From: Acidimicrobiales bacterium
Lineage (GTDB): Bacteria > Actinomycetota > Acidimicrobiia > Acidimicrobiales > Aldehydirespiratoraceae
Direction: 5' to 3'
Length of the DNA: 64,000 nt
Assembly: GCA_029247365.1 (NCBI GenBank)
Contig: JAQWLJ010000002.1
Location: 73,111 to 137,110 of the forward strand
A model generated the notes under the pieces. The model had not been told where the DNA came from, made no database searches, and was given only the letters and a program-made list of their open reading frames with translations. Below are positions 2,328 to 49,614 of the stretch, piece after piece. How positions within the stretch are numbered: the stretch's first letter is position 1; every line of letters begins with the position of its first letter. Position numbers and translations under genes: made by a program.

Positions 2328-3121
2328 GCTCCGAACCACTCACCTACGCGAACTACCTGCGAGTCAACGACCTGCTCAGTCTCCAGGACTGCCGGTCGAT
2401 CGATCCAGATACGGGCGAGGCCGAACACGATGAGCTGCTGTTCATCGTGATCCACCAGGTGTACGAGCTTTGGTTCAAGCAACTCTTGCACGAACTCGAA
2501 TACGTGGTGGCAGCGATGTTCGCGAACAACCTGGCGACGGCGCGGCTCCATATGAAGCGCGTGCTCAAGATTTTGAAGACGCTCGTCGGCCAAGTCGACA
2601 TCCTCGAGACGATGACACCGGCAGAGTTCGCGAGCTTCCGCGAGTTCCTCGACACGGCGAGTGGGTTCCAGTCCGCCCAGTTCCGCGAACTCGAGTTCAT
2701 GCTCGGCATCAAGGACCGCGTCCAGCTCGATTGGTTCTCGGGCCCAGAACGCGACTGCCTCGAGCGGCGCTTTGCCGAGCCGACGCTCTGGGACGCCTTC
2801 ATTGCCGCAATGGTCCGCCACGGCATGGACGTCCCGGCGAGCGCGACTGGACGCAACGTCACCGAGACCGTGGTCGAAGACCCGGCGCTACAGGCCCTCA
2901 TCGTGCGCGAATACCACGACGAGGCCTTCGCCGCCGTGTGCGAGACGCTGACCGATCTTGACGAAGGCCTTCAGGAGTGGCGTTATCGCCACGTGATGAT
3001 GGTGCGCCGCACCATCGGCACCAAGCACGGCACCGGTGGATCCGACGGCGCCGCCTACCTCCAAACCACCCTCTTTCGCCCTGCGTTCCCGGACCTGTGG
3101 GCGATCCGCACCGAGTTCTGA
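2324..3121 (+). CDS. kynA: Tryptophan 2,3-dioxygenase
   Basis: 265 aa. YANYLRVNDLLSLQ and HDELLFIVIHQVYELWFKQ blocks are typical of bacterial TDO. The start overlaps the kmo stop. Confidence 0.85.
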   Translation: MSSEPLTYANYLRVNDLLSLQDCRSIDPDTGEAEHDELLFIVIHQVYELWFKQLLHELEYVVAAMFANNLATARLHMKRVLKILKTLVGQVDILETMTPAEFASFREFLDTASGFQSAQFRELEFMLGIKDRVQLDWFSGPERDCLERRFAEPTLWDAFIAAMVRHGMDVPASATGRNVTETVVEDPALQALIVREYHDEAFAAVCETLTDLDEGLQEWRYRHVMMVRRTIGTKHGTGGSDGAAYLQTTLFRPAFPDLWAIRTEF

Positions 3122-3135
3122 GCGAAAGCGCACCG

Positions 3136-4572: not shown

Positions 4573-4588
4573 GGAGAACGGACCACCG

Positions 4589-5542
4589 ATGCAGTACACC
4601 AAAGCCGGAGCGAAGGATCACGCCCTCGCGACCATGACCGGTATCTGGGCCGCCGCCCTCATGCCGTTCGACGATCAGCTTCGGATCGATGAGGACGGTT
4701 TTCGAGCGAACGTTCACCACTGGACGCAGGACCTCGGCATCGAGGGCCTCTTCATCTCGGGGAAGCAGGGCGAGTTCTATGCCATGACCCTCGAGGAACG
4801 AAAACGAAGCTTTGAACTCGCCGTTGAAACCACCGGCGACCACGCCCAGACGATCATGTCGTGCAGCGACCAGAACATGGACGTGGCCATTGAGCTCGCC
4901 TGCCACGCCGAGGACTGCGGCGCCGACTACATCGTTGTGCACGCGCCGCTGCTTCACTTCACCAAGGCGCAGGACGAAACGCTGCTGCGCTACTACCAAA
5001 CGATCGCTGATTCGGTCGATATTGGCATTGCTCTGTGGAGCCACCCCGACAGCGGGTACCTGATGTCTCCTGACCTCTGCAACCGCCTCGCCGACATCGA
5101 CAACGTGATCGCCATTAAGTACTCGGTGCCACGCAAGATGTACGCCGAACTCAGCGAACTCGCGTCCGATCGCATCCATGTCAGCACATCGGCTGAAAAC
5201 GAGTGGCTCGACAACATCATCGAGCTCGACTGGAAGCTCTACCTCTGCTCCTCACCCCCGTTCCTCATCCAGACTGCGACCGACCGACGGATGCACGACT
5301 ACACCGAGGCAGCGTTCGCCGGCCGCGTCGACGAGGCCCGGGCCATCAGCGCGACGCTGCAGCCGCTACGCGATGCCCTGATGGGCACCCGACCGGTTGA
5401 GAAGCCACATGCGCACCAGAAGTACTGGCAAGAACTCCTCGGGCAGGTCGGCGGCCGGGTCCGAGCCCCCATGCTCGAACTGACCGATGACGAGAAGGCT
5501 GTCACACGCGCGGCCTTCGAACAGTGCGGGCTGCGGGTGTGA
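4589..5542 (+). CDS. DHDPS/N-acetylneuraminate-lyase superfamily protein, atypical active-site blocks
   Basis: 317 aa with the Schiff-base Lys block VIAIKYS. The usual GTTGE block reads GKQGEF and the LYNxP block reads LWSHP. A GAGGAG-type RBS lies upstream. Confidence 0.7.
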   Translation: MQYTKAGAKDHALATMTGIWAAALMPFDDQLRIDEDGFRANVHHWTQDLGIEGLFISGKQGEFYAMTLEERKRSFELAVETTGDHAQTIMSCSDQNMDVAIELACHAEDCGADYIVVHAPLLHFTKAQDETLLRYYQTIADSVDIGIALWSHPDSGYLMSPDLCNRLADIDNVIAIKYSVPRKMYAELSELASDRIHVSTSAENEWLDNIIELDWKLYLCSSPPFLIQTATDRRMHDYTEAAFAGRVDEARAISATLQPLRDALMGTRPVEKPHAHQKYWQELLGQVGGRVRAPMLELTDDEKAVTRAAFEQCGLRV

Positions 5543-6330
5543 GCCTACGGGTCGTCCTTGTCGGCTGGGGTGCGATCGGCCGTACCGTTGCCACGTTGCT
5601 CCCTATCGACGGCATTGAGATCGTGGGCGTTGGCGTTCGGTCCGACCGCAGGCTCCCCGGCCTCCCCACCACGGCAACCGTCATTACCGATCCGGCCGAG
5701 CTCGCTGCGCTCGCACCTGACGTCGTTGCCGAAGCAGCTGGCCGCGAGACGGTGGTCCCCTGGGGTCGGGCTGCGCTGACCGTCGGTGCCGACATTGTGG
5801 TGTCGTCGGTCTCGGCTTTCGCCGATCCCGACGCGCTGGCCGACCTTCAATCCGTTGCCATCGAGTGCGGCACGCAGATCCAGATCCAAGCCGGAGCGCT
5901 TACCGGCATTGATGCGCTCGTCGCGGCCCGACCCATGGGTCTCGATGTCGTCCGCCACCGCATCGTCAAGCCACCGGCCGCATGGAAGGGAACGCCCGCC
6001 GAGGAGCTGTGCGCCCTCGACGGGCTCACCGCGCCAACCGTGTTCTCCCGCAGCGCTGCCGCTGAGGCGGCTCGGATGTTCCCGAAGAACGCCAACGTGG
6101 CCATGACCACCGCCCTGGCCGGTATCGGACCCGACAAAACCGAGATCGAGCTCGTCGCCGACCCCACCGCGACAACGAACCGTCATGAACTTCATGCTGA
6201 GGGCGGCTTCGGCACAATGGACGTCGTGATGGCCAACAACCCGCTCCCAGCCAACCCGAAGACGTCGGCCATGGCCGCGCTGAACCTCGCGCGGGCGATC
6301 GAGAACCGAGCGGCGCCGATCGTTATGTAG
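5539..6330 (+). CDS. nadX: L-aspartate dehydrogenase
   Basis: GTG 5539 overlaps the upstream stop (GTGA). VLVGWGAIG fold, FPKNANVA, ADP..T.N.H and NPKTSAMAA blocks match NadX as I remember it from Thermotoga. Confidence 0.8.
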   Translation: MSLRVVLVGWGAIGRTVATLLPIDGIEIVGVGVRSDRRLPGLPTTATVITDPAELAALAPDVVAEAAGRETVVPWGRAALTVGADIVVSSVSAFADPDALADLQSVAIECGTQIQIQAGALTGIDALVAARPMGLDVVRHRIVKPPAAWKGTPAEELCALDGLTAPTVFSRSAAAEAARMFPKNANVAMTTALAGIGPDKTEIELVADPTATTNRHELHAEGGFGTMDVVMANNPLPANPKTSAMAALNLARAIENRAAPIVM

Positions 6331-6339
6331 GCCCGACGA

Positions 6340-7251
6340 TCAGACGATCGTTTGCCAGTCCAGCCCGAGGTCGAGCACCCGCACCGAATGGGTGAGTTCG
6401 CCGACAGCGATGTAATCGACTCCCGTCGCTGCCACCTCAGCTGCCGTCTCAAGGGTCAGACCGCCGCTCGCTCCCAACCCAACAGCGGGACCGATCTCAT
6501 CACGTAACGCCACTGCGGCGCGCATCTGGTCGATCGTGAAGTTGTCGATCAGCACCGCTTCAGCGCCGGCCTCGATTGCGATACGGAGCCCATCGAGACT
6601 GTCGACTTCGATCTCGACTGGGATCGTCCCTTCCAGATCGCGAACCGCGGCATAGGCCTCAGCGACGCCACCGGCACTCGCCACGTGGTTGTCCTTGACC
6701 AGTGCAGCGTCGTAAAGACCCATCCGATGGTTGACCCCGCCGCCACAGCGAACCGCGTACTTCTGGAGTGCCCGCAGGCCAGGCAGCGTCTTGCGGGTGT
6801 CGCGCACCGACGCGTTGGTTCCATGAAGCGCCGCCGACCAACGCGCGGTCTGCGAAGCCACGCCCGACAGATGACAGACCAGGTTGAGAGCAGTCCGTTC
6901 CGCGGTCAGCATCAGTGCCGTCGGTGCCGTGACCCGGGCGACAACCGAACCCGGCCGAGCCGCATCGCCGTCGGAGACCAGATAGTCGAAGGCGCCCGCC
7001 GTGTCACCACACACCATTTCAACCACCGCAGCGGCCACGGGAAGGCCGGCGACGACGCCAGCGTCGCGGGCCCCGAAGGTCACGACGCACCGCTGGTCGG
7101 CAGGGATCGTGGCGGTCGACGTGACGTCGAACCCGTCAGCGAGATCCTCGACAAGGGCGACTCGGATCAGCTCCTCAACTGCCTCGGGGTCGAGGCCAGC
7201 CGCAGCAAGCCGAGCGACGGTATCGGCGGAGAGCGAATGAAGAACGACCAC
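6340..7251 (-). CDS. nadC: Nicotinate-nucleotide (quinolinate) pyrophosphorylase
   Basis: 303 aa. The RKTLPGLRALQKYAVRCGGGVNHRMGLYDAALVKDNH block is typical of QPRTase. Convergent with nadX, with 9 nt between the stops. Confidence 0.85.
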   Translation of the reverse strand: MVVLHSLSADTVARLAAAGLDPEAVEELIRVALVEDLADGFDVTSTATIPADQRCVVTFGARDAGVVAGLPVAAAVVEMVCGDTAGAFDYLVSDGDAARPGSVVARVTAPTALMLTAERTALNLVCHLSGVASQTARWSAALHGTNASVRDTRKTLPGLRALQKYAVRCGGGVNHRMGLYDAALVKDNHVASAGGVAEAYAAVRDLEGTIPVEIEVDSLDGLRIAIEAGAEAVLIDNFTIDQMRAAVALRDEIGPAVGLGASGGLTLETAAEVAATGVDYIAVGELTHSVRVLDLGLDWQTIV

Positions 7252-15108: not shown

Positions 15109-15735
15109 TTAGTCGGCGGGAAAATACCGGGAGGCAATACCGTCGAGAACGGCCTCAAGGCCCTCCTCGAAGCGTTCATCGCGGCCGATCTCAACGAGCA
15201 GCGCCATCCGGAAGGCAGCGACTCGCTCGAAGCCTTCAACTGCCGGCTCGGGGGCGTCGCCCGAAGCGGCGTCGAACTGCTGGACCAGAGTGCCGACCAC
15301 CCAGTTCGCAACCACGGAGAACGCCAGTGCGGCGACCCGGAGATCCTCGGTGACGTCGTCGAAGATGGCGACGACGCGATCGAGAAACTCCAAGCGCGCC
15401 GGCGCCTCGGGCGAGCGGTTCAATAAGACCGGCAATGCCCTCGGATGAGCGGATGCGACCTCGACGTAGCTTGCCGCGATCCGTCGGGCCTTGGTGCGCC
15501 AGTCGCCCGCCGGGTCGCCGTACGCCACGAGCACCTGGGTGTAGAGCGCGTTGCCGACCGAGTCGAGGAGGTCGTCTTTGTTGGCGACGTGATTGTAGAG
15601 CGACATCGCTTCGACACCCAGTTCGGCACCGAGCTTTCGCATGCTCAGGGCGGCAAGGCCGTGGTCGTCAATGAACTGCAGCGCCGTGTCGGCGATGCGT
15701 TCACGAGAGAGCGGTAGGCGCTCGACGACAGTCAT
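15109..15735 (-). CDS. TetR-family transcriptional regulator
   Basis: Start set at ATG 15735 (MTVVERLPLSRERI). The HTH block is LSMRKLGAELGVEAMSLYNHVANKDDL. Confidence 0.8.
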   Translation of the reverse strand: MTVVERLPLSRERIADTALQFIDDHGLAALSMRKLGAELGVEAMSLYNHVANKDDLLDSVGNALYTQVLVAYGDPAGDWRTKARRIAASYVEVASAHPRALPVLLNRSPEAPARLEFLDRVVAIFDDVTEDLRVAALAFSVVANWVVGTLVQQFDAASGDAPEPAVEGFERVAAFRMALLVEIGRDERFEEGLEAVLDGIASRYFPAD

Positions 15736-15968
15736 GCGGGCGAGTGTAGGCCCCCAAGCAGGCCCTGAGAGCCTACGTGCTATCTCCAGTTCGTGAACTG
15801 GTGGAGTCCCTTGGCGACGGCGTACACGTCGACTTCGGTGTCGCAGGGGATGCCGAACTCGAGGAGTGCCATCCCGAAAGGATCGATCATCGACCCCACA
15901 TCCTGCGAGTGATGCCCGATTCATTCCCCGCATGCGCCGCAGCACCAACAACCCACGACCAGTCGACT

Positions 15969-17015
15969 TCAACATCCCGATCGGTGTGCCTCGGGTTCCC
16001 ACTCAAGAACGTGGAATCCACCGAACCCAGCGGCGTCGAGCAGGGCCTCAGCTTCTCGGAGACGACTCCGGCCCTTCAGCGCAGCAAGGTCGCCAACTGC
16101 GGAGCCGGCGTGCCACGCAGCCCGACCCTGATCAACGAGCTGGTCGATCCCGTGAGCTCGCAGAAAGTCGGCCTGCAGACGCACGCTCGTGGGGTGGAGT
16201 GCCAGGAGTTCGTCCAGCGGGAGGTCGACGGTGATGTCAACCAGGCCTGGATCAGCGAGCCAGTCGTCGATTCGATCGTGGTCTCGGTAGGCGCGTAGCC
16301 AGCCACCGTCACGAGTGACGAGTTCCTCCGCGGTGGCCATGTAGTCGAGCACAACGAGTCGTGCACTTGGGTGGCGCGCCCGCTGTGCAACCACCCAAGC
16401 AGCGGCGTTGTCGACACGCGGCAGCCTCGCACCATTTGCAATGGGCGGTGGAGCGACTGGGGGACCATCGACCAGGACAAACCGTCCGTCATCGATATCG
16501 ATGGCGAGCGCAACGCCTCGATCGCCGCGGCGGGCGACGATGTCGAACGGGAGGTTGTCGAGTAGCTCATTGGCGAAGACAACGTCCACGAGACCCTCCA
16601 CCTCGCTGGCGTCGGCGAAGGAGCTGAGAAAAGCACCTCCCGGGTGAGCTTCGCGCTGCGAAGCTGACGGTTCGATCATCACCCACCGAAGCGCTCCAGC
16701 GGCGAAACAGCCACCCTCCGCGGCCATGACGGTGCGCGCCAGCGTGCCCGGCCCAGCGCCGTGCTCAACAACAGTGAACCTCGCGGGTCGACCGGCTGAT
16801 TCCCACCACGAGTCGACGGCACCGCTGATGACGGCACCGAAAAGGGGCCCAACTTCGGGTGCCGTCAGAAAATCGCCGTGCCGTCCTGCCCGGCCGCCAA
16901 CCACATAGAAGCCTTCATGCTCGTCGTAGAGCGCAGCCTCAACGAACGTCGAGACGGGGATCGGGCCCTGATCGCGGATCTGGGCACGGAGGCGGTCGGC
17001 CAGCGGGGCCGCCAC
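15969..17015 (-). CDS. MidA/NDUFAF7-family SAM-dependent methyltransferase
   Basis: GFYVVGGRAGRHGDFLTAPEVGPLFG block. GTG 17015 lies 4 nt downstream of the nuoN stop (17020-17022); the tracked 17114 start would overlap nuoN. Confidence 0.7.
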   Translation of the reverse strand: MAAPLADRLRAQIRDQGPIPVSTFVEAALYDEHEGFYVVGGRAGRHGDFLTAPEVGPLFGAVISGAVDSWWESAGRPARFTVVEHGAGPGTLARTVMAAEGGCFAAGALRWVMIEPSASQREAHPGGAFLSSFADASEVEGLVDVVFANELLDNLPFDIVARRGDRGVALAIDIDDGRFVLVDGPPVAPPPIANGARLPRVDNAAAWVVAQRARHPSARLVVLDYMATAEELVTRDGGWLRAYRDHDRIDDWLADPGLVDITVDLPLDELLALHPTSVRLQADFLRAHGIDQLVDQGRAAWHAGSAVGDLAALKGRSRLREAEALLDAAGFGGFHVLEWEPEAHRSGC

Positions 17016-17019
17016 CGGA

Positions 17020-18528
17020 TCAGCCGCCGATACCAGCGAGGAGGCTGACGTCGAACTCGCTGATGAGCGACGGATACACACCGAAGGCGATCGTGACGCC
17101 GGCGGTGATGCCAAGGGCAGCCATCAGCGACGGGGTGACGCGCACCGGGGTGACGTCGCCGTCGGGAGCTTCTTCAGCCCACATTCCGAGGCCGATCCGG
17201 GCGTAGTAGTACAGCGCGATGACCGAGTTGACGGCGACGAACACTCCGAGCACCACACCCGAAGCAGTGTTGGCATCGATGACGGCTTCCATCACCCGGA
17301 ACTTGGCCCACCAGCCACCGAGCGGCGGAATGCCTGCAAGAGAGAACAAGAAGATCGTCATCGCAACCGTGAGCCCTGGCGCGTAGTGGAAGAGCCCGCC
17401 GAAGCTGTTGATCTCGGCCGAGCGGGTCTTGCGGGCGACGGCCATGACGACGGCGAAGGCCCCGAGGTTCATCGCTGCGTAAACGACGAGATAGGTCACC
17501 GTCGCCTCGAGCGCAACATCGCCGACAGTGCCCGCAACTGCGAGCGGCGCCAGCATGTAACCCGCCTGCGCGACGCCGGAGTAGGCGAGCATGCGGACGA
17601 TGTTGGTCTGTCGCAAAGCGATCAGGTTGCCGACCGTCATCGATGCCGCAGCGAGGATCCAGAGCACTGGCTCGTAGACATCGTCGCGGCCGAAGAAGCC
17701 GAGGAACAAGAGGTTCATCAGCGCCACAAAGCCGGCCGCCTTGGAGGCGACAGAAAGGAACGCGGTGACCGGGGTGGGGGCACCCTCGTAGGTGTCGGGT
17801 GCCCAGGTGTGGAACGGGAACGCCGACACCTTGAAGGCAAAGCCGATGATCACGAAGATGATGCCGAGTACGACCACGGCCGATGGGTTGCCGGCGGCAC
17901 TGATGGCCTCGTTGATGTTGACGAGCAGCGTTGAGCCAGCACCGCCGTAGAGCAGCGACATTCCGTAGAGCATGATCGCCGAGGCGAACACCCCCATCAG
18001 GTAGTACTTCAGACCCGCCTCGTTGCTCTTGAGGTCGCGCTTGCGCCAGGTTGCGAGCATGTACGCCGGAATCGACAGCAGCTCGAGCGCCACGAAGATC
18101 GTGATGAGGTCACGGGCTGAGGCCATGAGGACCATACCGAGCACCGAACTCAACAGGAGGCTGTAGTACTCGTTCTCCCAGTAGTCGCCCTCGGCGATGT
18201 AGTTCGTCGAGAGCAACACCACGACGTAGGCCGACAGCACGAACAGCGCCTTCATGACCAAGGCGTAGTTGTCGACGACAAACGCTCCGTTGAACATCGA
18301 ACGATCGGCACCGTCGACAGCCAGCGTGATGATCGGCACCATGGTGGCCAGCAGGCCAAGCGACGCCAGCAGCGGCGCCAGCCGACGCCCGCGCTCAAGC
18401 CAGATGATGTCCACCAACGTGAGCAATGCGCCGGCACCGAGCAGCGTGAGCTCGGGCGCGGCGGCGTGCCAGTCGATGGGGGGCCGGACGAAGTCCCCGG
18501 CGGACTGAGCGAGCTGGGCGAGCATCAT
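17020..18528 (-). CDS. nuoN: NADH-quinone oxidoreductase subunit N (EFG-less set)
   Basis: 502-aa polytopic antiporter-like subunit. Its start overlaps the nuoM stop by 1 nt. Confidence 0.9.
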   Translation of the reverse strand: MMLAQLAQSAGDFVRPPIDWHAAAPELTLLGAGALLTLVDIIWLERGRRLAPLLASLGLLATMVPIITLAVDGADRSMFNGAFVVDNYALVMKALFVLSAYVVVLLSTNYIAEGDYWENEYYSLLLSSVLGMVLMASARDLITIFVALELLSIPAYMLATWRKRDLKSNEAGLKYYLMGVFASAIMLYGMSLLYGGAGSTLLVNINEAISAAGNPSAVVVLGIIFVIIGFAFKVSAFPFHTWAPDTYEGAPTPVTAFLSVASKAAGFVALMNLLFLGFFGRDDVYEPVLWILAAASMTVGNLIALRQTNIVRMLAYSGVAQAGYMLAPLAVAGTVGDVALEATVTYLVVYAAMNLGAFAVVMAVARKTRSAEINSFGGLFHYAPGLTVAMTIFLFSLAGIPPLGGWWAKFRVMEAVIDANTASGVVLGVFVAVNSVIALYYYARIGLGMWAEEAPDGDVTPVRVTPSLMAALGITAGVTIAFGVYPSLISEFDVSLLAGIGG

Positions 18529-20126
18529 CAGCCTCCGGACGCCGCCTTGGCTGCATCGGCGACACCCTCACAGCCGTCAGGCAGCTGCAGGCAGTTGTTG
18601 AGCGACTCGACGACGGCCGGGTCGGTGACCTCGAAGATCAGACCGGGGGCGACACCGAAGAGCACGATCAGGAAGAGCAGCGGCGACCACGCAATCCACT
18701 CGAACGTGTTGACGTCGGTGATCTCGGGATCGTCTTTGAACTCATCGGGTGGCTCACCCATCGCAGTGCGCTGCAGCAACCACAGCAGGTAGCCGGCGGC
18801 AAGGACGGTGCCGATGGCGGCGACGACCATGTAGCCGCGGAAGGTTTCCTCGGCGAGACCGTTGGCCGGGTTGTAGGCCGACAGAATCGCCGGGAACTCA
18901 CCCCAGAAGCCGGCGAGGCCAGGCAGGCCGAGCGACGCCATCGCGGTGAAGCCCAGGATCCACCCGAGGTGCGGCGCCTGCACCAGCATGCCGCCAAGGC
19001 GGCCGATCTCGAGGGTGTGATAGCGCTCTTTCACCGAACCGGCGACGAAGAAGAGCATGCCGGTAATCAGGCCGTGAGCGACCATGCCAAAGATGGCGGC
19101 GTTGATACCGAAGTCGGTGAGGGTGGCGATGCCGAGCATTACGAAGCCCATGTGAGCCACCGACGAGAACGCGATCAGGCGCTTCATGTCGGTCTGGGCC
19201 AGACAGCCGAGAGCGCCGTAAATGATGCCGATGACGGCGAGCAGACCAATGTACGGAGCCCACGCCTCGGCCGCCTCGGGCAGCATCGGGATGGCGATGC
19301 GGATGAAGCCGTATGTCCCGAGCTTCAGAAGCACGGCCGCCAGAATGACCGAACCCTGGGTGGGTGCCTGGGTGTGGGCGTCCGGCAGCCAGGTGTGGAA
19401 CGGGAACATCGGGACCTTCACACCGAAGCCAAGGAACATGCCACCGAAGATCAGCAGCTGGCTGCTTCGGGTGATGCCGAGGCCCGCATTGTTCGTGAGG
19501 TCGACCATGTTGAAGGTGTGTTCACCGAGCGAGTCGGCCGACAAGAAGAACAGCGCGAGGAATCCCAGCAGCATGAGTGCCGACCCAAACAGCGTGTAAA
19601 GGAAGAACTTCAGCGACGCATAGCGGCGATCCTCGCCACCCCACACCGCGATCATGAAGAACATCGGGAGCAAGACGACCTCGAAGAAGACGAAGAACAA
19701 GATGAGGTCCTGCGCCACGAAGGTGCCGAGCATGCCCGTCTCAAGGATGAGCATCAGCATGAGGAATGCTTTGGCGTTACCCGGTGACGGGATGTGGTCC
19801 CACGAGTAGATGAAGACCAGCGGCATCACGAGCACGGAGAGCGCGATGAGCGGCAGGGACATGCCGTCGACGCCGATCGTATAGCCCGCGCCAATGACCT
19901 CGATCCATTCCTTGTCGAGCCAGTACTGGATCTGGCCGGCATTGTCGTAGTCGAAATCGAGCAACAACCAGACGCCGAGGCCAAGGGTGACCAGCGACGT
20001 GAGGAGGGCGAGCTGCTTGTGCAGCCCCTCTTCTTCGGAGGGGAAAAGCGCCATGATGAGCGCACCTGCCAGCGGGGCGAAGACCAGAGCGGTCAGCAGC
20101 CAGTCGTTTCCTGCGATGGGATCCAT
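18528..20126 (-). CDS. nuoM: NADH-quinone oxidoreductase subunit M (EFG-less set)
   Basis: 532-aa antiporter-like subunit with FPFHTWLPDAH and KLGTYG blocks. Confidence 0.9.
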   Translation of the reverse strand: MDPIAGNDWLLTALVFAPLAGALIMALFPSEEEGLHKQLALLTSLVTLGLGVWLLLDFDYDNAGQIQYWLDKEWIEVIGAGYTIGVDGMSLPLIALSVLVMPLVFIYSWDHIPSPGNAKAFLMLMLILETGMLGTFVAQDLILFFVFFEVVLLPMFFMIAVWGGEDRRYASLKFFLYTLFGSALMLLGFLALFFLSADSLGEHTFNMVDLTNNAGLGITRSSQLLIFGGMFLGFGVKVPMFPFHTWLPDAHTQAPTQGSVILAAVLLKLGTYGFIRIAIPMLPEAAEAWAPYIGLLAVIGIIYGALGCLAQTDMKRLIAFSSVAHMGFVMLGIATLTDFGINAAIFGMVAHGLITGMLFFVAGSVKERYHTLEIGRLGGMLVQAPHLGWILGFTAMASLGLPGLAGFWGEFPAILSAYNPANGLAEETFRGYMVVAAIGTVLAAGYLLWLLQRTAMGEPPDEFKDDPEITDVNTFEWIAWSPLLFLIVLFGVAPGLIFEVTDPAVVESLNNCLQLPDGCEGVADAAKAASGG

Positions 20127-20156: not shown

Positions 20157-22499
20157 CTAGAGGGCGAGAAGGATGACGAAGGCGCCAGCCAAGAGGGCAG
20201 CGCCGGCAAACATGATTGCGGCGTAGTTCTGGACCTTGCCGGAGTTGATGGCGCGGAGTTCTTCGCCGGAGGCGTCGGAGACACGACCCGACAGGTTGAC
20301 GGCGCCGTCGACGATGGTCTGGTCGATCTTGTGGTACACGAGTTGGCCGGTCTGCACGGCGGACTCGCCCGCCTTGTTGACCATGCCGTCGATGACGTTC
20401 TGGTTGACCCAGTTCACCGCTCGAGCGAGCGGGCCCTTTGTGAACCCGGCGATGACGCCGGTGTACAGGTGATCGAGGTAGTACTTGTTCACCAGCAGGT
20501 TGTGGCCGGCCCGGGCAAAAACGTTGGTGGTAGTAACCCCGTTGGGCATGCCGACCAGCGACTCGCCAAGTTGCTTGGAAAGTCGGTCGAGTCGAACGAA
20601 GTAGTAGTAGTACGCGAACGCGGCACCCACGACGGCGACCAGCGACGCAACGATGGCGAGCGACCAGCTCGGTGTGGCGTGTCCCACTGCAGGGAAGTAC
20701 GACGAACCAGCGGGTTCGATGAAGTGGAGGAAGCGTTCCTGCCAGCCTGAGGGATTCTTCTTCGAACCGGTGAGGAAACCGGGCGGGAAGTTGACGAAAC
20801 CAATGAGGATCGAGAACGCCGACAGGATGTAGAGCGGGTAGAGGATTCGAGGGCCCGATTCATGCGGCTCACCATGGTGAGCATGATCGTCGGCGTGGTC
20901 GTCGGCGTGGTCCTCATGATGGCCACCGCGGTACTCGCCGTGGAACGTGAGGTAGACGCAGCGGGTCATGTAGGCGGCAGTGAGCGCAGCGCCGATCATG
21001 CCCATGACGAAGTGGAAGGTGTAACTGCCCGGAGCCGCACCGCTACCGCCGAGCACACCCCACCCACCGGTGTTGACAAGAATCTCATCCTTGGACCAGA
21101 AGCCCGCGAGCGGGAACACACCGGCAAGCGCCAGCGAACCGATCACAAACGTGATGTAGGTCTTCGGCATGAACTTCCGCATACCGCCCATGTCGCGCTT
21201 CATGTCGAAGCTGTGGACGGCATGCGCAACCGAGCCCGAACCGAGGAACAGGTTGGCCTTGAAGAAAGCGTGGGTGAAGAGGTGGAACACTGCCGCAGTC
21301 CAGGCGCCAACGCCAAGGGCCATCGCCATGTAGCCGAGCTGCGAAACCGTCGAGTAGGCGAGCACCTTCTTGATGTCGTCCTGCACAAACGCCAGCAGAC
21401 CCGCACCGACCACGGTGATCGCACCAACGGTGGCGAGCAGGTTGATGCTCGAGCCTTCGATCTGCATGCCTTCCCAGAAGACCGGGTACAGGCGGGCGAC
21501 CATGTAGATACCGGCGACGACCATGGTGGCGGCGTGGATGAGCGCCGACACAGGCGTCGGACCGGCCATGGCGTCGGGCAGCCAGGTATGCAGCACGAAC
21601 TGGCCCGACTTCGACATGACGGCGGCTGTGAGACACGCCGCCGCAACGACCAGCGCTGTGTGGCTGACGCCACCCTGCACGATGGCCTCGTTGATCTTGA
21701 TGGTGTCGAAGGTCGTGCCACCACCGGCAGCGAAGAAGAGCGTGATCATGCCAACCAAGAGGCCAACGTCGCCGACACGGTTGGTGAGGAAGGCCTTCAG
21801 CGCGGCATCGCTGTTGGGCTTCTCTTCCCACCAGTGGCCGATAAGGGCGAACGAACAGACACCGACGAGCTCCCAGCCGACGATCATCTGAAGAATGTTG
21901 TCGCTGAGGACGAAGAACAGCATCGACGCAGTGAACAGTGACAAGAACGCAAAGAAGTGCGTATAGCGCCGATCGCCGCTGACATAGTCGGTCGAGTAGA
22001 TGTGCACCAGCAGCGAGATGAACGTGACGACGAAGAGCATCATCACGCTGAGGCCATCGACCATGATCCCGGCGTTGAATTCGATACCCCCAGACTGCAG
22101 CCACTGGGTGGACTGCTGCACGGCGACGTAGGCGTGGGTCCCGCCGTCGCCCGCTTCAGCAGCGAGGGTGCCAACCGCGTACTCGGCGGTGTCGCTCGCA
22201 GAGCCCGCACCGTCGCTCAAGGCAATGGCGTGCTCGTCGTCGTGCTTTTCGAGCTCGAAGTTGTCGCGGTGATCCATCCACGCAACACCGCTGAGGATCG
22301 CAAGGACGAACGACGCTGACACGGCAGCGATGCCGATCTCGGCGCCCTTGTATGGCATGCGCTTGCCGAAGAACAGGATCAGGACGAATGAGATCGCCGG
22401 GAGCAGTGGGATGATCCACGCGTTCTCCAGGAACCAGTTGGCGTCGTTGGTGACGGTGGTGACCTTCGAGACGGCGTCGGCAGCGAGGGTGGCGAACAC
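20157..22499 (-). CDS. nuoL: NADH-quinone oxidoreductase subunit L (EFG-less set), extended
   Basis: 780 aa. HTWLPDAMAGPTPVSALIHAATMV block and a C-terminal lateral-helix region. Has an extra N-proximal insertion and a His/Asp-rich loop. Confidence 0.9.
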   Translation of the reverse strand: MFATLAADAVSKVTTVTNDANWFLENAWIIPLLPAISFVLILFFGKRMPYKGAEIGIAAVSASFVLAILSGVAWMDHRDNFELEKHDDEHAIALSDGAGSASDTAEYAVGTLAAEAGDGGTHAYVAVQQSTQWLQSGGIEFNAGIMVDGLSVMMLFVVTFISLLVHIYSTDYVSGDRRYTHFFAFLSLFTASMLFFVLSDNILQMIVGWELVGVCSFALIGHWWEEKPNSDAALKAFLTNRVGDVGLLVGMITLFFAAGGGTTFDTIKINEAIVQGGVSHTALVVAAACLTAAVMSKSGQFVLHTWLPDAMAGPTPVSALIHAATMVVAGIYMVARLYPVFWEGMQIEGSSINLLATVGAITVVGAGLLAFVQDDIKKVLAYSTVSQLGYMAMALGVGAWTAAVFHLFTHAFFKANLFLGSGSVAHAVHSFDMKRDMGGMRKFMPKTYITFVIGSLALAGVFPLAGFWSKDEILVNTGGWGVLGGSGAAPGSYTFHFVMGMIGAALTAAYMTRCVYLTFHGEYRGGHHEDHADDHADDHAHHGEPHESGPRILYPLYILSAFSILIGFVNFPPGFLTGSKKNPSGWQERFLHFIEPAGSSYFPAVGHATPSWSLAIVASLVAVVGAAFAYYYYFVRLDRLSKQLGESLVGMPNGVTTTNVFARAGHNLLVNKYYLDHLYTGVIAGFTKGPLARAVNWVNQNVIDGMVNKAGESAVQTGQLVYHKIDQTIVDGAVNLSGRVSDASGEELRAINSGKVQNYAAIMFAGAALLAGAFVILLAL
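20889..20912. repeat. Perfect 12-bp tandem duplication (GTCGGCGTGGTC x2) inside nuoL
   Basis: Read directly from the sequence. On the coding strand it gives DHADDHAD within HHEDHADDHADDHAHHGEPHE. Confidence 0.9.
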
Positions 22500-22503
22500 A
22501 GCG

Positions 22504-22803
22504 TCAGCCCTTCAGCAGATCGGCCTCAGAGAGGTCGATACTGCGGCGGTTGCGGTACATGAGCAAGACGATGGCAAGACCGATGCCGACTTCGGCGGCA
22601 GCGACTGCGATCGTGAAGAGGGCGAACACGGCACCACCGACATCGTCGGTGAGCGTGCCGAACGCCACGAGGTTGATGTTGACGGCGTTGAGGATCAACT
22701 CAATCGACATCAATACGAGCATGCCGTTCTTGCGAACGAGGACGCCGTACACGCCGATACAGAACAGCACGGCGGCAAGCAGGAGGAACTGGTTGAGCAG
22801 CAT
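22504..22803 (-). CDS. nuoK: NADH-quinone oxidoreductase subunit K (EFG-less set)
   Basis: 99 aa with 3 TM segments and a [10 protein letters not shown] block. Confidence 0.9.
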
Positions 22804-22815
22804 GAGCGATCCTCC

Positions 22816-23346
22816 TCAGTCCTGCCGGGCCACGACGATGGCCCCGATGAGGGCGGCGAGCAGAAGCACGGACACGGCCTCGAACGGCACGATGTACTGG
22901 CTGAAGATCGAGTCGGACACCGTGGCCACCGACTGCGGTTCGTCCGCAGTGATCTCGGTATCGTCGAAGGAATCGACGAGTGCAAGGGCCATCACAGCGA
23001 AGAGCAGGATGCCGACGACGCTGGCCATCGCCCTTTTCTCATCGGCGACAGTTTCGTCGTCGCCCATCGACGCCCGCGTGAGCATGACACCGAACAAGAA
23101 CAGCACGATCACCGCGCCGATGTAGACAAGAATCTGCGTCACGGCGACAAACTCGGCACCGAGGAAGAGGAACTGGACGGCGACGCCGGCGAGCACGACG
23201 ACCAGCCACAGGGCGGCGTGTACCACGTTCTTGGTGGTCACGACCCGCAGCGCTGCGTAGACCATCACGGCGGCAATGACGCCCCAGAACGAGTTGACCA
23301 CCCACTTCTCGGTGGTGGTGAACTCGGCGAGAAGAAGACCGGTCAC
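22816..23346 (-). CDS. nuoJ: NADH-quinone oxidoreductase subunit J (EFG-less set)
   Basis: GTG 23346 overlaps the nuoI stop (GTGA). [26 protein letters not shown] blocks. Confidence 0.85.
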
Positions 23347-23882
23347 GTTGCCGGCACCGTCTTCACCTTGGCCTCTGAACCAGCCTCGTAGGGCTCGAAG
23401 GCCGGGACCGTCTCCATCCACTCCGCAAGGCGCGACTTGTCATGGAGCAGGTCAGCGATGCGGGGCTCAGAGAACTCGTACTCCGGGCTCCAGAAGAGCG
23501 CATCGAACGGACAGACCTCGACACAGATGCCGCAATACATGCACAGCGCAAAGTCAATGTCGAAGCGATCGAGCGCGTTGACCTGACGGGGCTTGCCGCC
23601 GGCCCGGCGAGGTGGTGCCTTCTCCTTGTGGCCCTCGATATAGATGCACCAATCGGGGCACTCACGGGCACAGAGCATGCACGCCGTGCAGTTCTCCTCG
23701 TGCAGGGCGATGACGCCGCGGGCACGCGCCGGCGGTTCTTCCTTCTCGTGCGGGTACTGCACGGTCTCGGCGCCCTTGACGGGGTTCGGGATCGGCTTCT
23801 TGATCCCGTCAGGAAAGACGGTCCGCAAGATGGTGCCACCGGTGACACCGAGCCCCTTGATAAGTCCTGGTACGAGTCCCAT
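23343..23882 (-). CDS. nuoI: NADH-quinone oxidoreductase subunit I (EFG-less set)
   Basis: Start set at ATG 23882. Two CxxCxxCxxxCP motifs ([24 protein letters not shown]). Confidence 0.9.
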
Positions 23883-23890
23883 AGCGAGTC

Positions 23891-24919
23891 CTAGAAGGCG
23901 ACCTTGAGCACGCCGGTGACCACGATGTTGGCCAGGGCGATTGGAATGAGGACCTTCCACGCCAGCTTCTGGAGCTGATCCTCGCGGAAGCGGGGGAAGG
24001 TGAAGCGAACCCAGAACACGACGAACGTGAGCACGACGATCTTCGTGATCAACACGATCGGGCCGAGGACGTTCATGATGTTGTCGGCAGGGTCGATACC
24101 GGGGATGTACCAGCCGCCGAGGAAGAGCACCGCAGCAATCGCGCTGAACACGCCAGCGGTGGCGAACTCGCCGATGAAGAAGAGCAGGAACCGCATACCG
24201 GAGTACTCGGTCATATAGCCAGTGACCAGCTCCGACTCGGCGATCGGCATGTCGAACGGGGTCTGGGTGAGCTCGGCCTGCATCGCAACCATGAAGATCA
24301 GGAATGCCACACCCTGGGTCAGGATGTACGGGTTACCGATGACCCCCCAGCCGAAGATCTCGCCCTCGGCCTGGGCGAGCACGATGCCCTGCATGTTCAT
24401 TGTCTCAGCCTGGATGACGACGCCGAGCACGGCGAGAATCAGCGGCAGCTCGTAGGCAATGAGCTGGCCCGTAGCGCGCAGGCCGCCGAGCAGCGAATAC
24501 TTGGACGCGGAACCCCAACCAGCCATGAGAATGCCGATGACCGACACTGACGACACGGCCATCCCGAGGTAAATGCCGATCTCAGAGTCGACGAACCAGG
24601 CGTCGGGACCGCCGGGCACCACGACCACCAGCAGGAAGGTCGACATGAGCACCACGAATGGCGCCGCTGCGAAGACGAAGCGATCGGCCTTGCGAGGGAA
24701 GATGTCTTCCTTCTGGATGAACTTGCCTACCTCAGCGAGCAGCTGGAGCGAGCCGAACGGGCCCGCTTCCATCGGGCCGAGCCGGCTCTGCATGAACGAC
24801 ACCAGTTTGAACAGGTGGAGATACACCAGGGTGCCGGCGACCAGCAGCACAGCTGCGAGACCGCCCACGACGCGCAGCGTGGTCTGAGCCCACCAGGGAT
24901 CGGTGATAGCCGCGATCAT
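23891..24919 (-). CDS. nuoH: NADH-quinone oxidoreductase subunit H (EFG-less set)
   Basis: ATG 24919 overlaps the nuoD stop (ATGA). [14 protein letters not shown] and EYSGMRF blocks. Confidence 0.9.
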
Positions 24920-26088
24920 CGGTCGATGTCCCCCAAGATGAAGTACAGCGATCCCAGGATCGTGATGATGTCGGGCACGTAGACGCCCTTCAGCAGCCAC
25001 GGCGTGATCGAGATGTTGTTGAACGACGCCGAACGGATCTTGACTCGATACGGAACGAGATCGCCCTTCGACACGACGTAGTACCCCATCACGCCCAGCG
25101 GATTTTCGGTCTCGACGTAGGCCTCACCGGCGGGCACCTTGATGATGCGCGGCACCTTCGCCATGATCGGGCCGCCGGGCAGCCCATCGAGCAGCTGATC
25201 AACCATCTTCGTGCTCTCGCGCACCTCCTGGAGACGGACCCAGAAGCGGGCGAACGAATCACCGTCGACGTGGGTCCAGACCTTCCAGTCGAGCTCGTTG
25301 TGCACGAGGCCGCCCGGATTGTCGCGGCGGGTATCCCAGTCAACGCCCGAGGCGCGAATGTTGGCACCCGACAGGCCGTAGCTAAGACCGACGTCGGCAG
25401 GGATGACACCAATGCCACGGGTACGGGCCTCGAAGATCTCGTTGCCCTGCAACAGGCCTTCGATCTCGTCGCAGAAGTTGCGCATCTTCTTCATGGCGCG
25501 CTTGGTCTCAGTAATCCAGCCGGCTGGCAGGTCGTCCTTCAGGCCGCCGATGCGATCGAAGTTCGGATGGAAGCGGCCACCAGTGGCTGCCTCGATCTGG
25601 TTGAGGACGTGCTCACGGTCGCGGAAGGCGAAGAAGGCGGGGGTGACTGCGCCGACCTGCAGGCCCATGTCGCCGAGGAACAGCGAGATGTTGGCGATTC
25701 GGCTCATCTCGAAGAGGATCGTTCGGATCCACTGGGCTCGAGGCGGCGCCTCGACCTCCATGAGTTTCTCGGCGGCGAGGATGAACGGGACCTCGTTCGC
25801 GAAGCTACCGACCCAATCGATGCGGTTAATAAGGGTGGTGACCTGCGGGTACGTGCGAACCTCAGCGAGCTTCTCGTACCCGCGGTGCATGTAGCCCATG
25901 ATCGGATCAACCGCGATGACCTGCTCACCGTCGAGCTTGGCGACGATGCGCAACGTGCCATGTGTGGCCGGGTGCTGGGGCCCGATGTTGAGGGTCATGC
26001 CCTCAGTCTCAAGCTCTACGTTGACGCGGGCATCGGCGGCCTGGGCTGCGATGTAGGCGAGCTGCTCCCGATCCGAAATCGCCGTCAC
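24916..26088 (-). CDS. nuoD: NADH-quinone oxidoreductase subunit D (EFG-less set)
   Basis: GTG 26088 overlaps the nuoC stop. IGPQHPATHGTLRIV block and a C-terminal [11 protein letters not shown]. Confidence 0.9.
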   Translation of the reverse strand: MTAISDREQLAYIAAQAADARVNVELETEGMTLNIGPQHPATHGTLRIVAKLDGEQVIAVDPIMGYMHRGYEKLAEVRTYPQVTTLINRIDWVGSFANEVPFILAAEKLMEVEAPPRAQWIRTILFEMSRIANISLFLGDMGLQVGAVTPAFFAFRDREHVLNQIEAATGGRFHPNFDRIGGLKDDLPAGWITETKRAMKKMRNFCDEIEGLLQGNEIFEARTRGIGVIPADVGLSYGLSGANIRASGVDWDTRRDNPGGLVHNELDWKVWTHVDGDSFARFWVRLQEVRESTKMVDQLLDGLPGGPIMAKVPRIIKVPAGEAYVETENPLGVMGYYVVSKGDLVPYRVKIRSASFNNISITPWLLKGVYVPDIITILGSLYFILGDIDR

Positions 26089-26780
26089 GATGCGTCTCCA
26101 CTCTCGTCGTCGTCGCCGGGCATCTGTTCGACGTCGACAATGCCAGGCCACGGCTTCAGGCGGCGGGCGAGCAGCGGGTAGTCCTTGCGCAGCGGGTTCC
26201 CTTCGAAACCGCTCGGCAGATAGATGTGGCGCAGGCCCGGATGACCGTCGAAGGAGATTCCGTACATTTCCCAGCACTCACGCTCGTGCCAGTCAGCGCC
26301 AGCGAACACACCGGTCCACGAGGCGAGGGTGAGGTCGTCGTCGGGGACGTCAACCTTCAAGGTGACGCCGAGTCCGTTGACGATGTCATTGACACGGGCG
26401 AAGACTTGGAACCGGGTCTCGCCGCCGGTGACCCCATGTTCGAGCGAAGAGTCGATCTCGGAGGCCTCGTCGTGACCCAGCTCGATGTCGACTTGGGAGT
26501 CCATGTCGCGACCGAAGGGCGACGGCATCCAGTCGATAGCCGACAGGAAGTTGAAGTACTGGAAGCCCAGACCGGTCTTGAGGTAGTCGCCAGCGTCGAC
26601 CCACGCCTCGCGGGTGACACGGATCCAAAGATCGTCGTCGGGCGCGAGGTGGCTCTCGACCAGACCGTCACCAAGTTGGGCGGCGAGATGGGTGAGGAGG
26701 TCGCTGCGGGCGTTGTCGACGGCAGCCTCAGCCACGTCGGCGGTCTCTTCAGGGGTGTCAGTCGACGACAACCGGCTCAC
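26085..26780 (-). CDS. nuoC: NADH-quinone oxidoreductase subunit C (EFG-less set)
   Basis: 30-kDa subunit blocks ([28 protein letters not shown]). The start is uncertain; GTG 26780 is the nearest in-frame candidate to the nuoB stop. Confidence 0.8.
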
Positions 26781-27258
26781 CCTTCCAACGCTCAGCCATG
26801 TCTTCGTTTTGGATGCGCTCCTGAAGCAACACGATGCCCTCAAGGAGCGCTTCGGGGCGAGGCGGACAGCCAGGTACATAGACGTCGACGGGGATGATCT
26901 GGTCGACACCCTTCGTGACGGAGTACGAGTCCCAATACGGGCCGCCACAGTTGGCACACGAGCCCATCGAGATCACGTACTTGGGTTCGGGCATCTGCTC
27001 GTACAGCCTTTTGACCGACGGGACCATCTTGTCGGTGACCGTGCCTGACACGACGAGGAGGTCGGCTTGGCGAGGAGATGCCGGCAACGGAATGACGCCG
27101 AGACGCATAACGTCGTAACGAGGCGACGCGAAGGCGGCGCCCATCTCGATCGCGCAGCACGCGAGACCCCACTGGTACACCCACATGGAGTACTTGCGGC
27201 TCATGTTCAGCAGCGTCTGGAGACCACCGCCGACCTTTCCGGATTCGACTAGGCCCAC
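26758..27258 (-). CDS. nuoB: NADH-quinone oxidoreductase subunit B (EFG-less set)
   Basis: N2-cluster ligand blocks [19 protein letters not shown] and GCPPRPE. Confidence 0.9.
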
Positions 27259-27614
27259 TTGAGCACTCCCTTGCGCCAGGCGTAGATCAGGCCCAGCAAG
27301 AGGATGAAGATGAAGATCGCCATCTCGATAAGGCCGAAGACTTCGTAAACCTCAAGCCGGGTAGCCCAGGGGAAGATGAAGACCGCTTCGACGTCGAACA
27401 TGACGAAGAGCAGGGCAAAGACGTAGTACCGGATGTTGGCCTGGGACCACATGTCGCCGGTGGGGTCGACGCCCGATTCATAGGCCTCGAGCTTGGCTTC
27501 GGTGGGCTTGCTGGGTCGGAAAATACGACCAAGACCAAGGAACGCGCCGACCAGCGCAACGCCGGTGAGACCGAAGATCCCAACGGTCAGGTAACTACGA
27601 AGAAAATCCGACAC
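27249..27614 (-). CDS. nuoA: NADH-quinone oxidoreductase subunit A (EFG-less set)
   Basis: 121 aa with 3 TM segments. YESG.DP and FDVE..F..PW blocks. GTG start. Confidence 0.9.
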
Positions 27615-41744: not shown

Positions 41745-42385
41745 ACTTCCTCACCTTCCGCGGCTCCAGCAGGGGCCGGCTCATCATTGCGGGCCAACCA
41801 GACGGGACGCACGTTGGCCTGCTCGGGGGGCACGATGCCGGCCATAGCGTCGACCGGAATGTGCTGACGAACGCGGCCGAGCGTGCCGTGCTCGGGGATG
41901 TCGTCGGCGCGACTATTGCGAATGTCGTCGATCAGATCGTCGAAGTCCTCGTCGGTGACGCGTAGGCGGTAGCGGTAGTTGACCTGGAGACACGGGGCCT
42001 CGGTGCACGCAGCGATGCACTCGACGTCTTCGATGGTGAACATGCCGTCGGCGGTGGTGCCACCGGCCTTCACGCCGAGCGTCTTCTCGGCGTGGGCGAG
42101 AAGTTCCTCACCGCCAAGGAGTTGGCACGACAGGTTGGTGCACACGTTGACCATGTACTTTCCGACCGGGTGGAACTTGAACATCTCGTAGAACGACCCG
42201 GTTCCCTTGACCTCGGCCGGGGTGGTGTCGGTCAGCTCTGCGATCTGGCGCATGGCTGCGTCGGTGACCCAGCCCTCCTGCTCCTGGGCTAGGTGCAACA
42301 GCGGGATCAGGGCCGACTTGGCGACCGGGTAACGCGAGATGATCTCATCGGCGATCGCGAGATTGTCGGGCGTGAAGTAACTCAT
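41741..42385 (-). CDS. nuoE: NADH-quinone oxidoreductase subunit E
   Basis: CTNLSCQLLGG and CIAACTEAPC 2Fe-2S ligand blocks. Confidence 0.9.
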   Translation of the reverse strand: MSYFTPDNLAIADEIISRYPVAKSALIPLLHLAQEQEGWVTDAAMRQIAELTDTTPAEVKGTGSFYEMFKFHPVGKYMVNVCTNLSCQLLGGEELLAHAEKTLGVKAGGTTADGMFTIEDVECIAACTEAPCLQVNYRYRLRVTDEDFDDLIDDIRNSRADDIPEHGTLGRVRQHIPVDAMAGIVPPEQANVRPVWLARNDEPAPAGAAEGEEV

Positions 42386-43680
42386 CGGTCGACCTCGCCC
42401 ATGATCGGGTCGACACTCGAGATGATGGCGACGCCGTCGGCGATCATGCCGCCCTGCATGAGGTGCGGCATGGTCTGCAGGTTGATGTAGCTCGGGCCGC
42501 GCACGTGCATGCGATATGGCGTGGAGCTGCCGTCGCTCACCATGTAGATACCGAGTTCGCCGCGCGGCGACTCGACCGCTGCGTACGCCTCGCCCTCGGG
42601 CACCTGGTAGCCCTCGGTGAAGATCTTGAAGTGATGAATCAGCGCTTCCATCGACTGGTCGATACGCACCCGAGGGGGGGGCGTGACCTTCTTGTCCTGT
42701 ACGCGGTAGTCCCCAGCCGGCATGCGATCAAGAATCTGTTCGACGATGCGCATCGACTCGCGGATCTCGTTGAGGCGGATCGCATAGCGGTCGTAGCTGT
42801 CGCCGAACGAGCCGACGATGACATCGAAGTCAACCTCGGGGTATGCGAGATACGGCTCGTCGCGGCGAAGATCCCATGCGTAACCAGTGGAACGCAGGAT
42901 CGGACCAGTGGCCGATAATGCCAACGCCTCGTCGGCGTTGAGCACACCCACACCTTGGAGTCGCTCGCGCCAGATCGGCTGGCCGGTCATGAGGATGTCG
43001 TACTCCTCGAGGCGGGGTGGGATCAGCTCGAGCAGGTGCTCGACGTCGGCCTGCCAACCGTCGGGGAGATCGGCCGCCACACCGCCGGGGCGGATGTAGT
43101 TATGGTTCATGCGAAGGCCGGTGACCTTCTCAAAGAACCGGAGAACTTCCTCTCGTTCCCGCCAGCCGTAGATCATCATCGACACGGCGCCGAGGTCCAT
43201 GCCGTTGGTGGCCATGAACAGCAGATGCGAGCTCATGCGGTTGAGTTCGCTCATCAGCATGCGGATCCACACAGCACGCTCCGGGACTTCGATGCCAAGG
43301 AGCTTCTCGGTCGCGAGGCTGAACGCCAGCTCGGTGAAGAGTGGCGAGGCGTAGTCCATGCGGGTGACGTTGGTGCAGCCCTGCAGGTAGGTGAGCTGCT
43401 CAGCCTGCTTCTCCATCCCCGTGTGGAGATAGCCGACAACCGGCTTGCTGCGCAGGACGGTTTCGCCCTCCATCTCGAGCATGAGGCGCAGCACGCCGTG
43501 GGTCGACGGGTGCGACGGACCCATGTTGAGAAGGACCCGCTCATCTTCATCGGGCGCGTCAGGGTCAGCGCCGATCATTGCGGCTTCGGCTTCGCTCAGG
43601 CGGAGAACCGCGGAGTCGTCGCCGCGACGCTTCACCCGCTCGGCGCCGTCAAGAACCTCAGTGTTTTCGGTAACCGTCAT
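42382..43680 (-). CDS. nuoD: NADH-quinone oxidoreductase subunit D (14-subunit set)
   Basis: MGPSHPSTHGVLRLMLE block and a C-terminal DPIMGEVDR. Confidence 0.9.
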   Translation of the reverse strand: MTVTENTEVLDGAERVKRRGDDSAVLRLSEAEAAMIGADPDAPDEDERVLLNMGPSHPSTHGVLRLMLEMEGETVLRSKPVVGYLHTGMEKQAEQLTYLQGCTNVTRMDYASPLFTELAFSLATEKLLGIEVPERAVWIRMLMSELNRMSSHLLFMATNGMDLGAVSMMIYGWREREEVLRFFEKVTGLRMNHNYIRPGGVAADLPDGWQADVEHLLELIPPRLEEYDILMTGQPIWRERLQGVGVLNADEALALSATGPILRSTGYAWDLRRDEPYLAYPEVDFDVIVGSFGDSYDRYAIRLNEIRESMRIVEQILDRMPAGDYRVQDKKVTPPPRVRIDQSMEALIHHFKIFTEGYQVPEGEAYAAVESPRGELGIYMVSDGSSTPYRMHVRGPSYINLQTMPHLMQGGMIADGVAIISSVDPIMGEVDR

Positions 43681-47864: not shown

Positions 47865-47909
47865 GCGCGTGACGGAGTTTCTCGGGTTCTGAGTCGAAAG
47901 GGGTGGTTA

Positions 47910-48794: not shown

Positions 48795-48810
48795 AGGTGA
48801 ATCTCCTCGA

Positions 48811-49596: not shown

Positions 49597-49614
49597 CGAC
49601 TTCTCTCCTTCGCC

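Follow-up and report, generated by a model that had tools for sequence, protein, structure and literature searches.

A MidA-family methyltransferase gene linked to the 11-subunit nuo operon of Acidimicrobiia, with an arginine of NuoD1 as its candidate target

On the minus strand of the window, by which we mean the whole 64,000-nucleotide stretch of DNA analysed here, a long run of respiratory genes includes two nuo operons, and the smaller of them is followed almost immediately by a gene for an S-adenosylmethionine (SAM)-dependent methyltransferase of the MidA/NDUFAF7 type. In mitochondria, NDUFAF7 dimethylates Arg85 of NDUFS2 and is required for complex I assembly (PMC3829151). Cluster N2 is 3.7 Å away from the modified Arg, which has been suggested to serve as key and lock between the NDUFS2 and NDUFS7 subunits while the complex is assembled; the need of mitochondrial complex I for this modification still awaits an explanation (PMC8042128). 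The locus raises the question of whether the bacterial gene belongs functionally to the operon that it follows and, if it does, which of the two complexes and which residue its product would act on.

The midA gene and its operon

The midA-like ORF encodes 348 aa from a GTG start (Table 1). Against PF02636 (Methyltransf_28), whose curated cut-off is 23.3 bits, its product scores 75.1 bits (E=8e-21) over profile positions 8-228 of 249; no NCBIfam model matches it. A homologue search with the protein gave 4992 matches at E<=1e-5; the matches listed are Acidimicrobiia proteins of ~340-390 aa, several of them named 'MidA family methyltransferase' by their sources, and the closest one listed is 99% identical and likewise 348 aa long. 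For the start codon, we aligned 26 homologues of 330-390 aa, of which the nearest begin at the same MAAPLADRLRA position as the GTG 17015 frame. Because the homologue N-termini align there, GTG 17015 was taken as the start, and a longer reading from the in-frame TTG at 17114, which would overlap nuoN by 95 nt, was ruled out.

We built an AF2 model of the protein on its homologue alignment (pLDDT 91.8, pTM 0.90) and compared it with the PDB by Foldseek. The top matches were MidA structures from Dictyostelium (5zu0/5ztz), Burkholderia (4f3n/4g67), and R. palustris (1zkd), with TM-scores of 0.75-0.79 and E-values of 1e-21 to 1e-24, the next fold reaching only E 4e-6 and TM 0.36. As modeled, the protein has the MidA fold, a Rossmann methyltransferase core with family-specific N- and C-terminal parts. 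Its GDFLTAPEVGPLFG block aligns with GDF(T/I)T(S/A)PE(I/V)SQMFG of the R. palustris and Dictyostelium proteins. In the alignment, G86, G90, A148, N149, E150, and D153 are invariant in both MidA subfamilies, as are T51 and F59 when the Rhodopseudomonas and Bradyrhizobium MidA proteins are aligned. By profile match, predicted fold, and motifs, the protein is a member of the MidA/NDUFAF7 family (PF02636, COG1565).

Within this family, identity between the window MidA and the characterised MidA proteins is just 20-26% (E about 1e-14), and 188 of 7338 clusters built at 50% identity reach E<=1e-30 with it, forming a compact subfamily. Membership of the NDUFAF7 orthologue group would show in close sequence relationship to its alpha-proteobacterial and mitochondrial members and in a common gene neighbourhood, compared for Rhodopseudomonas, and we found neither. 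Because of the low identity and the compact subfamily, we treat the protein as a MidA-family member but not demonstrably an NDUFAF7 orthologue; judged by identities, E-values, and gene context, its subfamily is separate from the alpha-proteobacterial/mitochondrial one. At 20-26% identity, substrate specificity could have shifted.

In the operon upstream of midA, nuoD1 runs directly into nuoH1, in the window as in all related loci that show the two genes, and because nuoD adjoins nuoH in this way the 11-subunit operon has no nuoEFG. The order from nuoM1 to nuoH1 is repeated in related loci, and the GTG start of nuoD1 overlaps the nuoC1 stop (GTGA). Between the nuoN TGA and the midA GTG lies a spacer of 4 nt, tccg. 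A consensus scan found no terminator-like or promoter-like sites around this junction, which means just that there is no obvious terminator. The spacing and the scans suggest that nuoN and midA are co-transcribed. An earlier note on this DNA had already read the family, the GTG 17015 start, the 4-nt spacing, and the EFG-less operon in this way, and all four readings held.

Table 1. Positions, in the window, of midA, its motifs, the two nuo operons, and neighbouring genes.
Feature	Positions	Strand	Basis or remark
Kynurenine-pathway and NAD-synthesis cluster	1-7251		
TetR-family gene	15109-15750	-	
midA	15969..17015	-	PF02636, start by homologue alignment, AF2 model, Foldseek
midA stop codon	15971-15969	-	read from sequence
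ANELLDNLP motif	16548-16574	-	downstream of EHGAGPGT in the protein
EHGAGPGT, glycine-rich SAM-binding motif, residues 84-91	16743..16766	-	alignment
GDFLTAPEVGPLFG family block, residues 47-60	16836..16877	-	read from sequence and alignment
midA start codon GTG	17015-17013	-	read from sequence
nuoN stop and 4-nt spacer	17016..17022	-	read from sequence
nuoN stop codon TGA	17022-17020	-	
11-subunit operon, nuoA-B-C-D-H-I-J-K-L-M-N	27614-17020	-	
nuoN1, last gene of the 11-subunit operon	17020..18528	-	PF00361
nuoM1	18528-20126	-	ORF list and translation
nuoL1	20157-22499	-	ORF list and translation
nuoK1	22504-22803	-	ORF list and translation
nuoJ1	22816-23421	-	ORF list; start is an upper bound
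nuoI1	23343-23960	-	ORF list; start is an upper bound
nuoH1	23891-about 25000	-	ORF list; start is an upper bound
nuoD1, short NuoD of the 11-subunit operon	24916..26088	-	PF00346, PRK12322
NuoD1 RIDW	25813-25824		
NuoD1 Arg codon CGC, GYMHRGYEK, equivalent of bovine NDUFS2 Arg85	25884-25882	-	alignment
nuoC1	stop 26085, start not fixed	-	ORFs, tblastn synteny
nuoB1	26758-27258	-	ORFs, tblastn synteny
nuoA1	27249-27614	-	ORFs, tblastn synteny
Small membrane ORF (194 aa) and sulfite-oxidase-family gene	29510-27871	-	between the nuo operons
14-gene nuoA-N operon with nuoE, F, G	45252-29401	-	
14-subunit and 11-subunit operons in tandem	17020-45252		
nuoD2 of the 14-subunit operon	42382..43680	-	
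NuoD2 Thr codon ACG, GYLHTGMEK, at the Arg85 position	43422-43420	-	alignment
Split cytochrome b (PF00033; PF00032), Rieske, and c-type cytochrome genes	50409-46374	-	
Cytochrome b/Rieske/cytochrome c genes with a 372-aa family-less ORF	45256-50409	-	directly upstream of nuoA2

The 14-subunit operon lies directly upstream of the 11-subunit operon and midA, and the same tandem is seen in roughly two in three related metagenome loci with enough upstream DNA (L086-L163). Of the two genes between the operons, the sulfite-oxidase-family gene encodes a molybdoenzyme with PF00174 and PF03404, and the membrane ORF is without a Pfam match; the nearest relatives (L086-L089, L098, L099) have both genes, and further ones just the membrane ORF. 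Together with both nuo operons, the cytochrome b, Rieske, and cytochrome c genes make up one long respiratory gene run. The TetR-family gene, ~220 nt downstream of midA on the same strand, is found after midA in seven related loci as well (L002-L006, L012, L025). In NuoL1, an insert rich in His and Asp (GGHHEDHADDHADDHAHHGEPHE) is present and the C-terminal part is long. The cluster at the beginning of the window holds genes for kynureninase, an FAD monooxygenase, tryptophan 2,3-dioxygenase, an aldehyde dehydrogenase, aspartate dehydrogenase, and quinolinate phosphoribosyltransferase.

Conservation of the nuoN-midA link

We scanned midA and its 10-kb flanks in one genome per species, which gave 80 loci, 79 of them labelled Acidimicrobiia or another Actinomycetota rank, with Microthrixaceae, Ilumatobacteraceae, Iamiaceae, Acidimicrobiaceae, Aldehydirespiratoraceae, and Actinospongicola among the taxa. 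The remaining locus (L002, CAXMSE010000079.1) comes from a record with the title 'uncultured Gammaproteobacteria bacterium', but for its nuo, midA, tetR, and HD genes the identity to the Acidimicrobiia-type genes of the window is 55-93%, and a binning or labelling error is the probable cause of the title. DNA upstream of midA was available in 78 loci, and in 75 of these nuoN lies upstream on the same strand, always of the 11-subunit-operon type (480-830 bits against N1, 200-270 against N2). The gap between the two genes is at most 160 nt in 65 of the 75 loci, with a median of ~10 nt; most gaps are below 50 nt or are overlaps, the twelve apparent overlaps including four of the 4-nt stop/start type. 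As an internal control, the genes downstream of midA (tetR, SDR, PIG-L, HD) recur in just a handful of loci.

In the other 10 loci, 0.9-7 kb of unrelated genes are inserted between nuoN and midA. Read from their translations, these are apparent two-component systems, Thr-rich secreted proteins, an SDR-like protein, and a large flavoprotein-like ORF. We considered whether the inserts share an extra factor and rejected this, as the translations look heterogeneous and the insertions apparently incidental. Three loci (L018, L027, L063) have no nuoN upstream of midA, which in L027 adjoins an AsnC-type regulator; with L168, they make up the subfamily members located away from nuo. In the divergent locus L081 (MidA 36% identical), the 11-subunit operon carries an insertion of DUF4178, PspA_IM30, and PspAA genes between nuoI and nuoJ (2557-4205 of that locus), and an M48 (HtpX-type) peptidase gene follows midA, as reported for Actinomarinales.

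A second sample, chosen independently of midA, consisted of metagenome contigs anchored on NuoC1. In all 26 loci that extend past nuoN1, some of them near-duplicates, midA is the next gene. MidA identity to the window protein falls to 32-39% in this sample, and distant representatives directly after nuoN include P0221 (36%), P0214 (37%), and P0258 (38%); the P0246 gene (39%) is not directly after nuoN. In Rhodopseudomonas, midA has lgt on one side and a Cu-oxidase_4 gene on the other, and nuo genes are absent for 10 kb around it; the linkage is a property of this subfamily, not of PF02636 as a whole. The earlier note had held that a lack of conserved adjacency between midA and nuo would speak against its functional operon link to complex I; because the link is kept in both samples (75 of 78 species genomes and 26 of 26 metagenome loci), this objection falls away for the subfamily, and the link stands.

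The arginine of NuoD1 and a proposed function

The dimethyl-Arg85 of the bovine 49-kDa subunit lies within the peptide KCDPHIGLLHRGTEK, residues 75-89 (Carroll et al. 2013, PMC3750175), in the context ...HIGLLHRGTEK and not HG(V/T)LR(L/I). Alignment to T. thermophilus Nqo4 and NdhH puts the Arg85 position in the motif GY(M/L)H-x-G-x-EK. The earlier note had named the Arg of the HG(V/T)LR(L/I) block as the modified one and had proposed an alignment of NuoD with NDUFS2 to confirm it; that Arg is indeed present in both NuoD proteins, but the bovine peptide shows that it is not the methylated residue, and the equivalence falls in the other motif. Nor do both copies keep the target, as had been supposed: at the Arg85 position, NuoD1 has Arg and NuoD2, which is 37% identical to it, has Thr. 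Among the NuoD1 orthologues of the fetched loci, 116 of 116 have Arg here, and among close NuoD2 homologues 120 of 120 have Thr; Thr is also found in T. thermophilus Nqo4 (position 64) and in M. smegmatis NuoD. With Arg in NuoD1 and Thr in NuoD2, just the midA-linked NuoD offers the known target of the family, and it does so in the H-R-G context that an NDUFAF7-type function expects of its cognate NuoD. Since the NuoD1 Arg is invariant, there is no natural variation with which midA could covary.

NuoD1 is a short NuoD that aligns with NCBIfam PRK12322 and with FpoD over the full length, and it is without a segment of ~24 residues (SMEALIHHFKIFTEGY, including ALIHHFK) found in NuoD2, Nqo4, and NdhH. 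His38 is kept in both window copies, in the HG(T/V)LR block. At the position of T. thermophilus Nqo4 Tyr87, the quinone head-group ligand, Trp is present in 116 of 116 NuoD1 orthologues and Tyr in 120 of 120 NuoD2 homologues. Going by these residues, the 11-subunit enzyme may have an unusual quinone site.

We propose that midA encodes an operon-borne assembly methyltransferase dedicated to the 11-subunit enzyme and acting on the NuoD1 Arg, a function that we consider likely, though well short of certain. Because just the NuoD of the 11-subunit operon keeps the Arg, the enzyme probably serves one of the two complex I versions. MidA would use S-adenosylmethionine to methylate the Arg of GYMHRGYEK, which as the match of NDUFS2 Arg85 would adjoin the Fe-S cluster N2 at the NuoD/NuoB interface, and methylation would take place during assembly of the quinone module; the 14-subunit complex I, having Thr at this position, would be no substrate. 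By analogy with the characterised systems, the putative product is symmetric omega-NG,NG'-dimethylarginine, and the assembly of the 11-subunit enzyme may require it. The same symmetric dimethyl-Arg is present in Nqo4 of Paracoccus denitrificans, as was shown in 2013, and the earlier view that the role of the bacterial homologues is essentially unknown was too pessimistic; E. coli NuoCD keeps the Arg but leaves it unmodified (PMC3750175). The E. coli case shows that an Arg at this position is by itself insufficient for methylation.

The methyltransferase could instead serve the 11-subunit complex through another residue or subunit (e.g. NuoB1, NuoC1, NuoI1, or another Arg or Lys of NuoD1), or could be mainly a binding or chaperone-type assembly factor. 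The conserved operon linkage, which points to the complex and not to the residue, agrees with this, as does the remoteness of the subfamily from characterised MidA proteins. However, the catalytic motifs are intact in the window MidA, and the family has one known substrate, the NuoD Arg, kept in the linked NuoD1 and lost in the unlinked NuoD2, and we regard such a role as rather unlikely. There is a smaller chance, which we put at slight, that the adjacency is inherited gene order without function and that the substrate is some unrelated protein, RNA, or small molecule: the loci all come from one class and are not independent, four subfamily members are located elsewhere, and alpha-proteobacterial midA sits away from nuo, as in the lgt-midA-Cu-oxidase_4 cluster of Rhodopseudomonas, yet the nuoN-midA junction persists despite divergence of MidA to about 35% identity and reshuffled downstream genes, and the few long insertions have not moved midA away. 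That the ORF is no gene, or starts elsewhere, could be suspected in high-GC DNA, which yields many long spurious ORFs, and from the in-frame upstream TTG, but is refuted to near certainty by the number of homologues, the confident fold, and the aligned N-termini.

If midA encodes the proposed NuoD1 methyltransferase, the cell provides a natural experiment in which an enzyme with the Arg and an operon methylase can be set against one with Thr and none. The Arg/Thr split turns a gene-order note into a specific prediction that is testable in cultured relatives such as Actinospongicola, Ilumatobacter, and Iamia, with a correction as to which arginine of NuoD should be examined. More speculatively, and with considerable doubt on our part, NuoD Arg methylation might be an older trait of the 'ancestral' 11-subunit enzyme and not a proteobacterial or mitochondrial speciality, serving in Acidimicrobiia also as a mark specific to NuoD1 and absent from NuoD2. 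In that case, the NuoD/NuoB interface near N2 would allow the two quinone modules to be distinguished in assembly, or N2 would be adapted to another electron donor or another quinone site.

Comparison with known systems

The window protein shares with NDUFAF7/MidA of human and Dictyostelium the Pfam family, the fold as modeled, and the SAM and ANE..D motifs, and its predicted client is the same, the 49-kDa/NuoD subunit with its H-R-G target motif. It differs in that its gene lies inside a nuo operon and does not stand alone, and in that its client here would be the 11-subunit enzyme without EFG and not the complex I that oxidises NADH. R. palustris MidA (RPA4359, PDB 1zkd) is likewise a bacterial PF02636 member with the MidA fold, but the identity is 24% and the Rhodopseudomonas gene has lgt and a Cu-oxidase_4/YfiH-type gene as its neighbours. 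A 2018 structural paper is reported to argue for methylation of the NDUFS2 type by alpha-proteobacterial MidA and for a proteobacterial origin; the locus described here would extend the MidA-NuoD partnership beyond Proteobacteria.

The 11-subunit, 'ancestral' complex-I-like enzymes are known from several groups, including Actinobacteria (Moparthi & Hagerhall 2011, PMC3144371; Desulfitobacterium study, PMC11238625). They have the same nuoABCDHIJKLMN set without nuoEFG, and these two papers make no mention of a linked methyltransferase. MidA would be the first candidate accessory factor for these poorly understood enzymes. In the literature searched, we found NDUFAF7 combined with an 11-subunit operon only in a heliorhodopsin study, which describes for Ca. 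Actinomarinales a unit of HeR, an 11-subunit nuo operon, NDUFAF7 (K18164/PF02636), htpX, and pspE, with a 14-subunit operon near it (Bulzu et al., bioRxiv 10.1101/2021.02.01.429150). That cluster, also from Acidimicrobiia, has the PF02636 gene after the 11-subunit nuo genes and the 14-subunit operon close by, as in the window. Unlike it, the window has no heliorhodopsin gene upstream, a sulfite-oxidase-family gene being in its place, and TetR in place of htpX downstream of midA. The Actinomarinales paper gives the gene order in one sentence and for one order, without NuoD residues or class-wide breadth.

Already known, then, are the enzyme family, bacterial NuoD methylation (Paracoccus, 2013), and the bare gene order (Actinomarinales, 2021). 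What the present analysis adds is a class-wide link that is independent of the anchor gene, the Arg/Thr split between the co-resident NuoD proteins, the corrected target residue, and a separate MidA subfamily.
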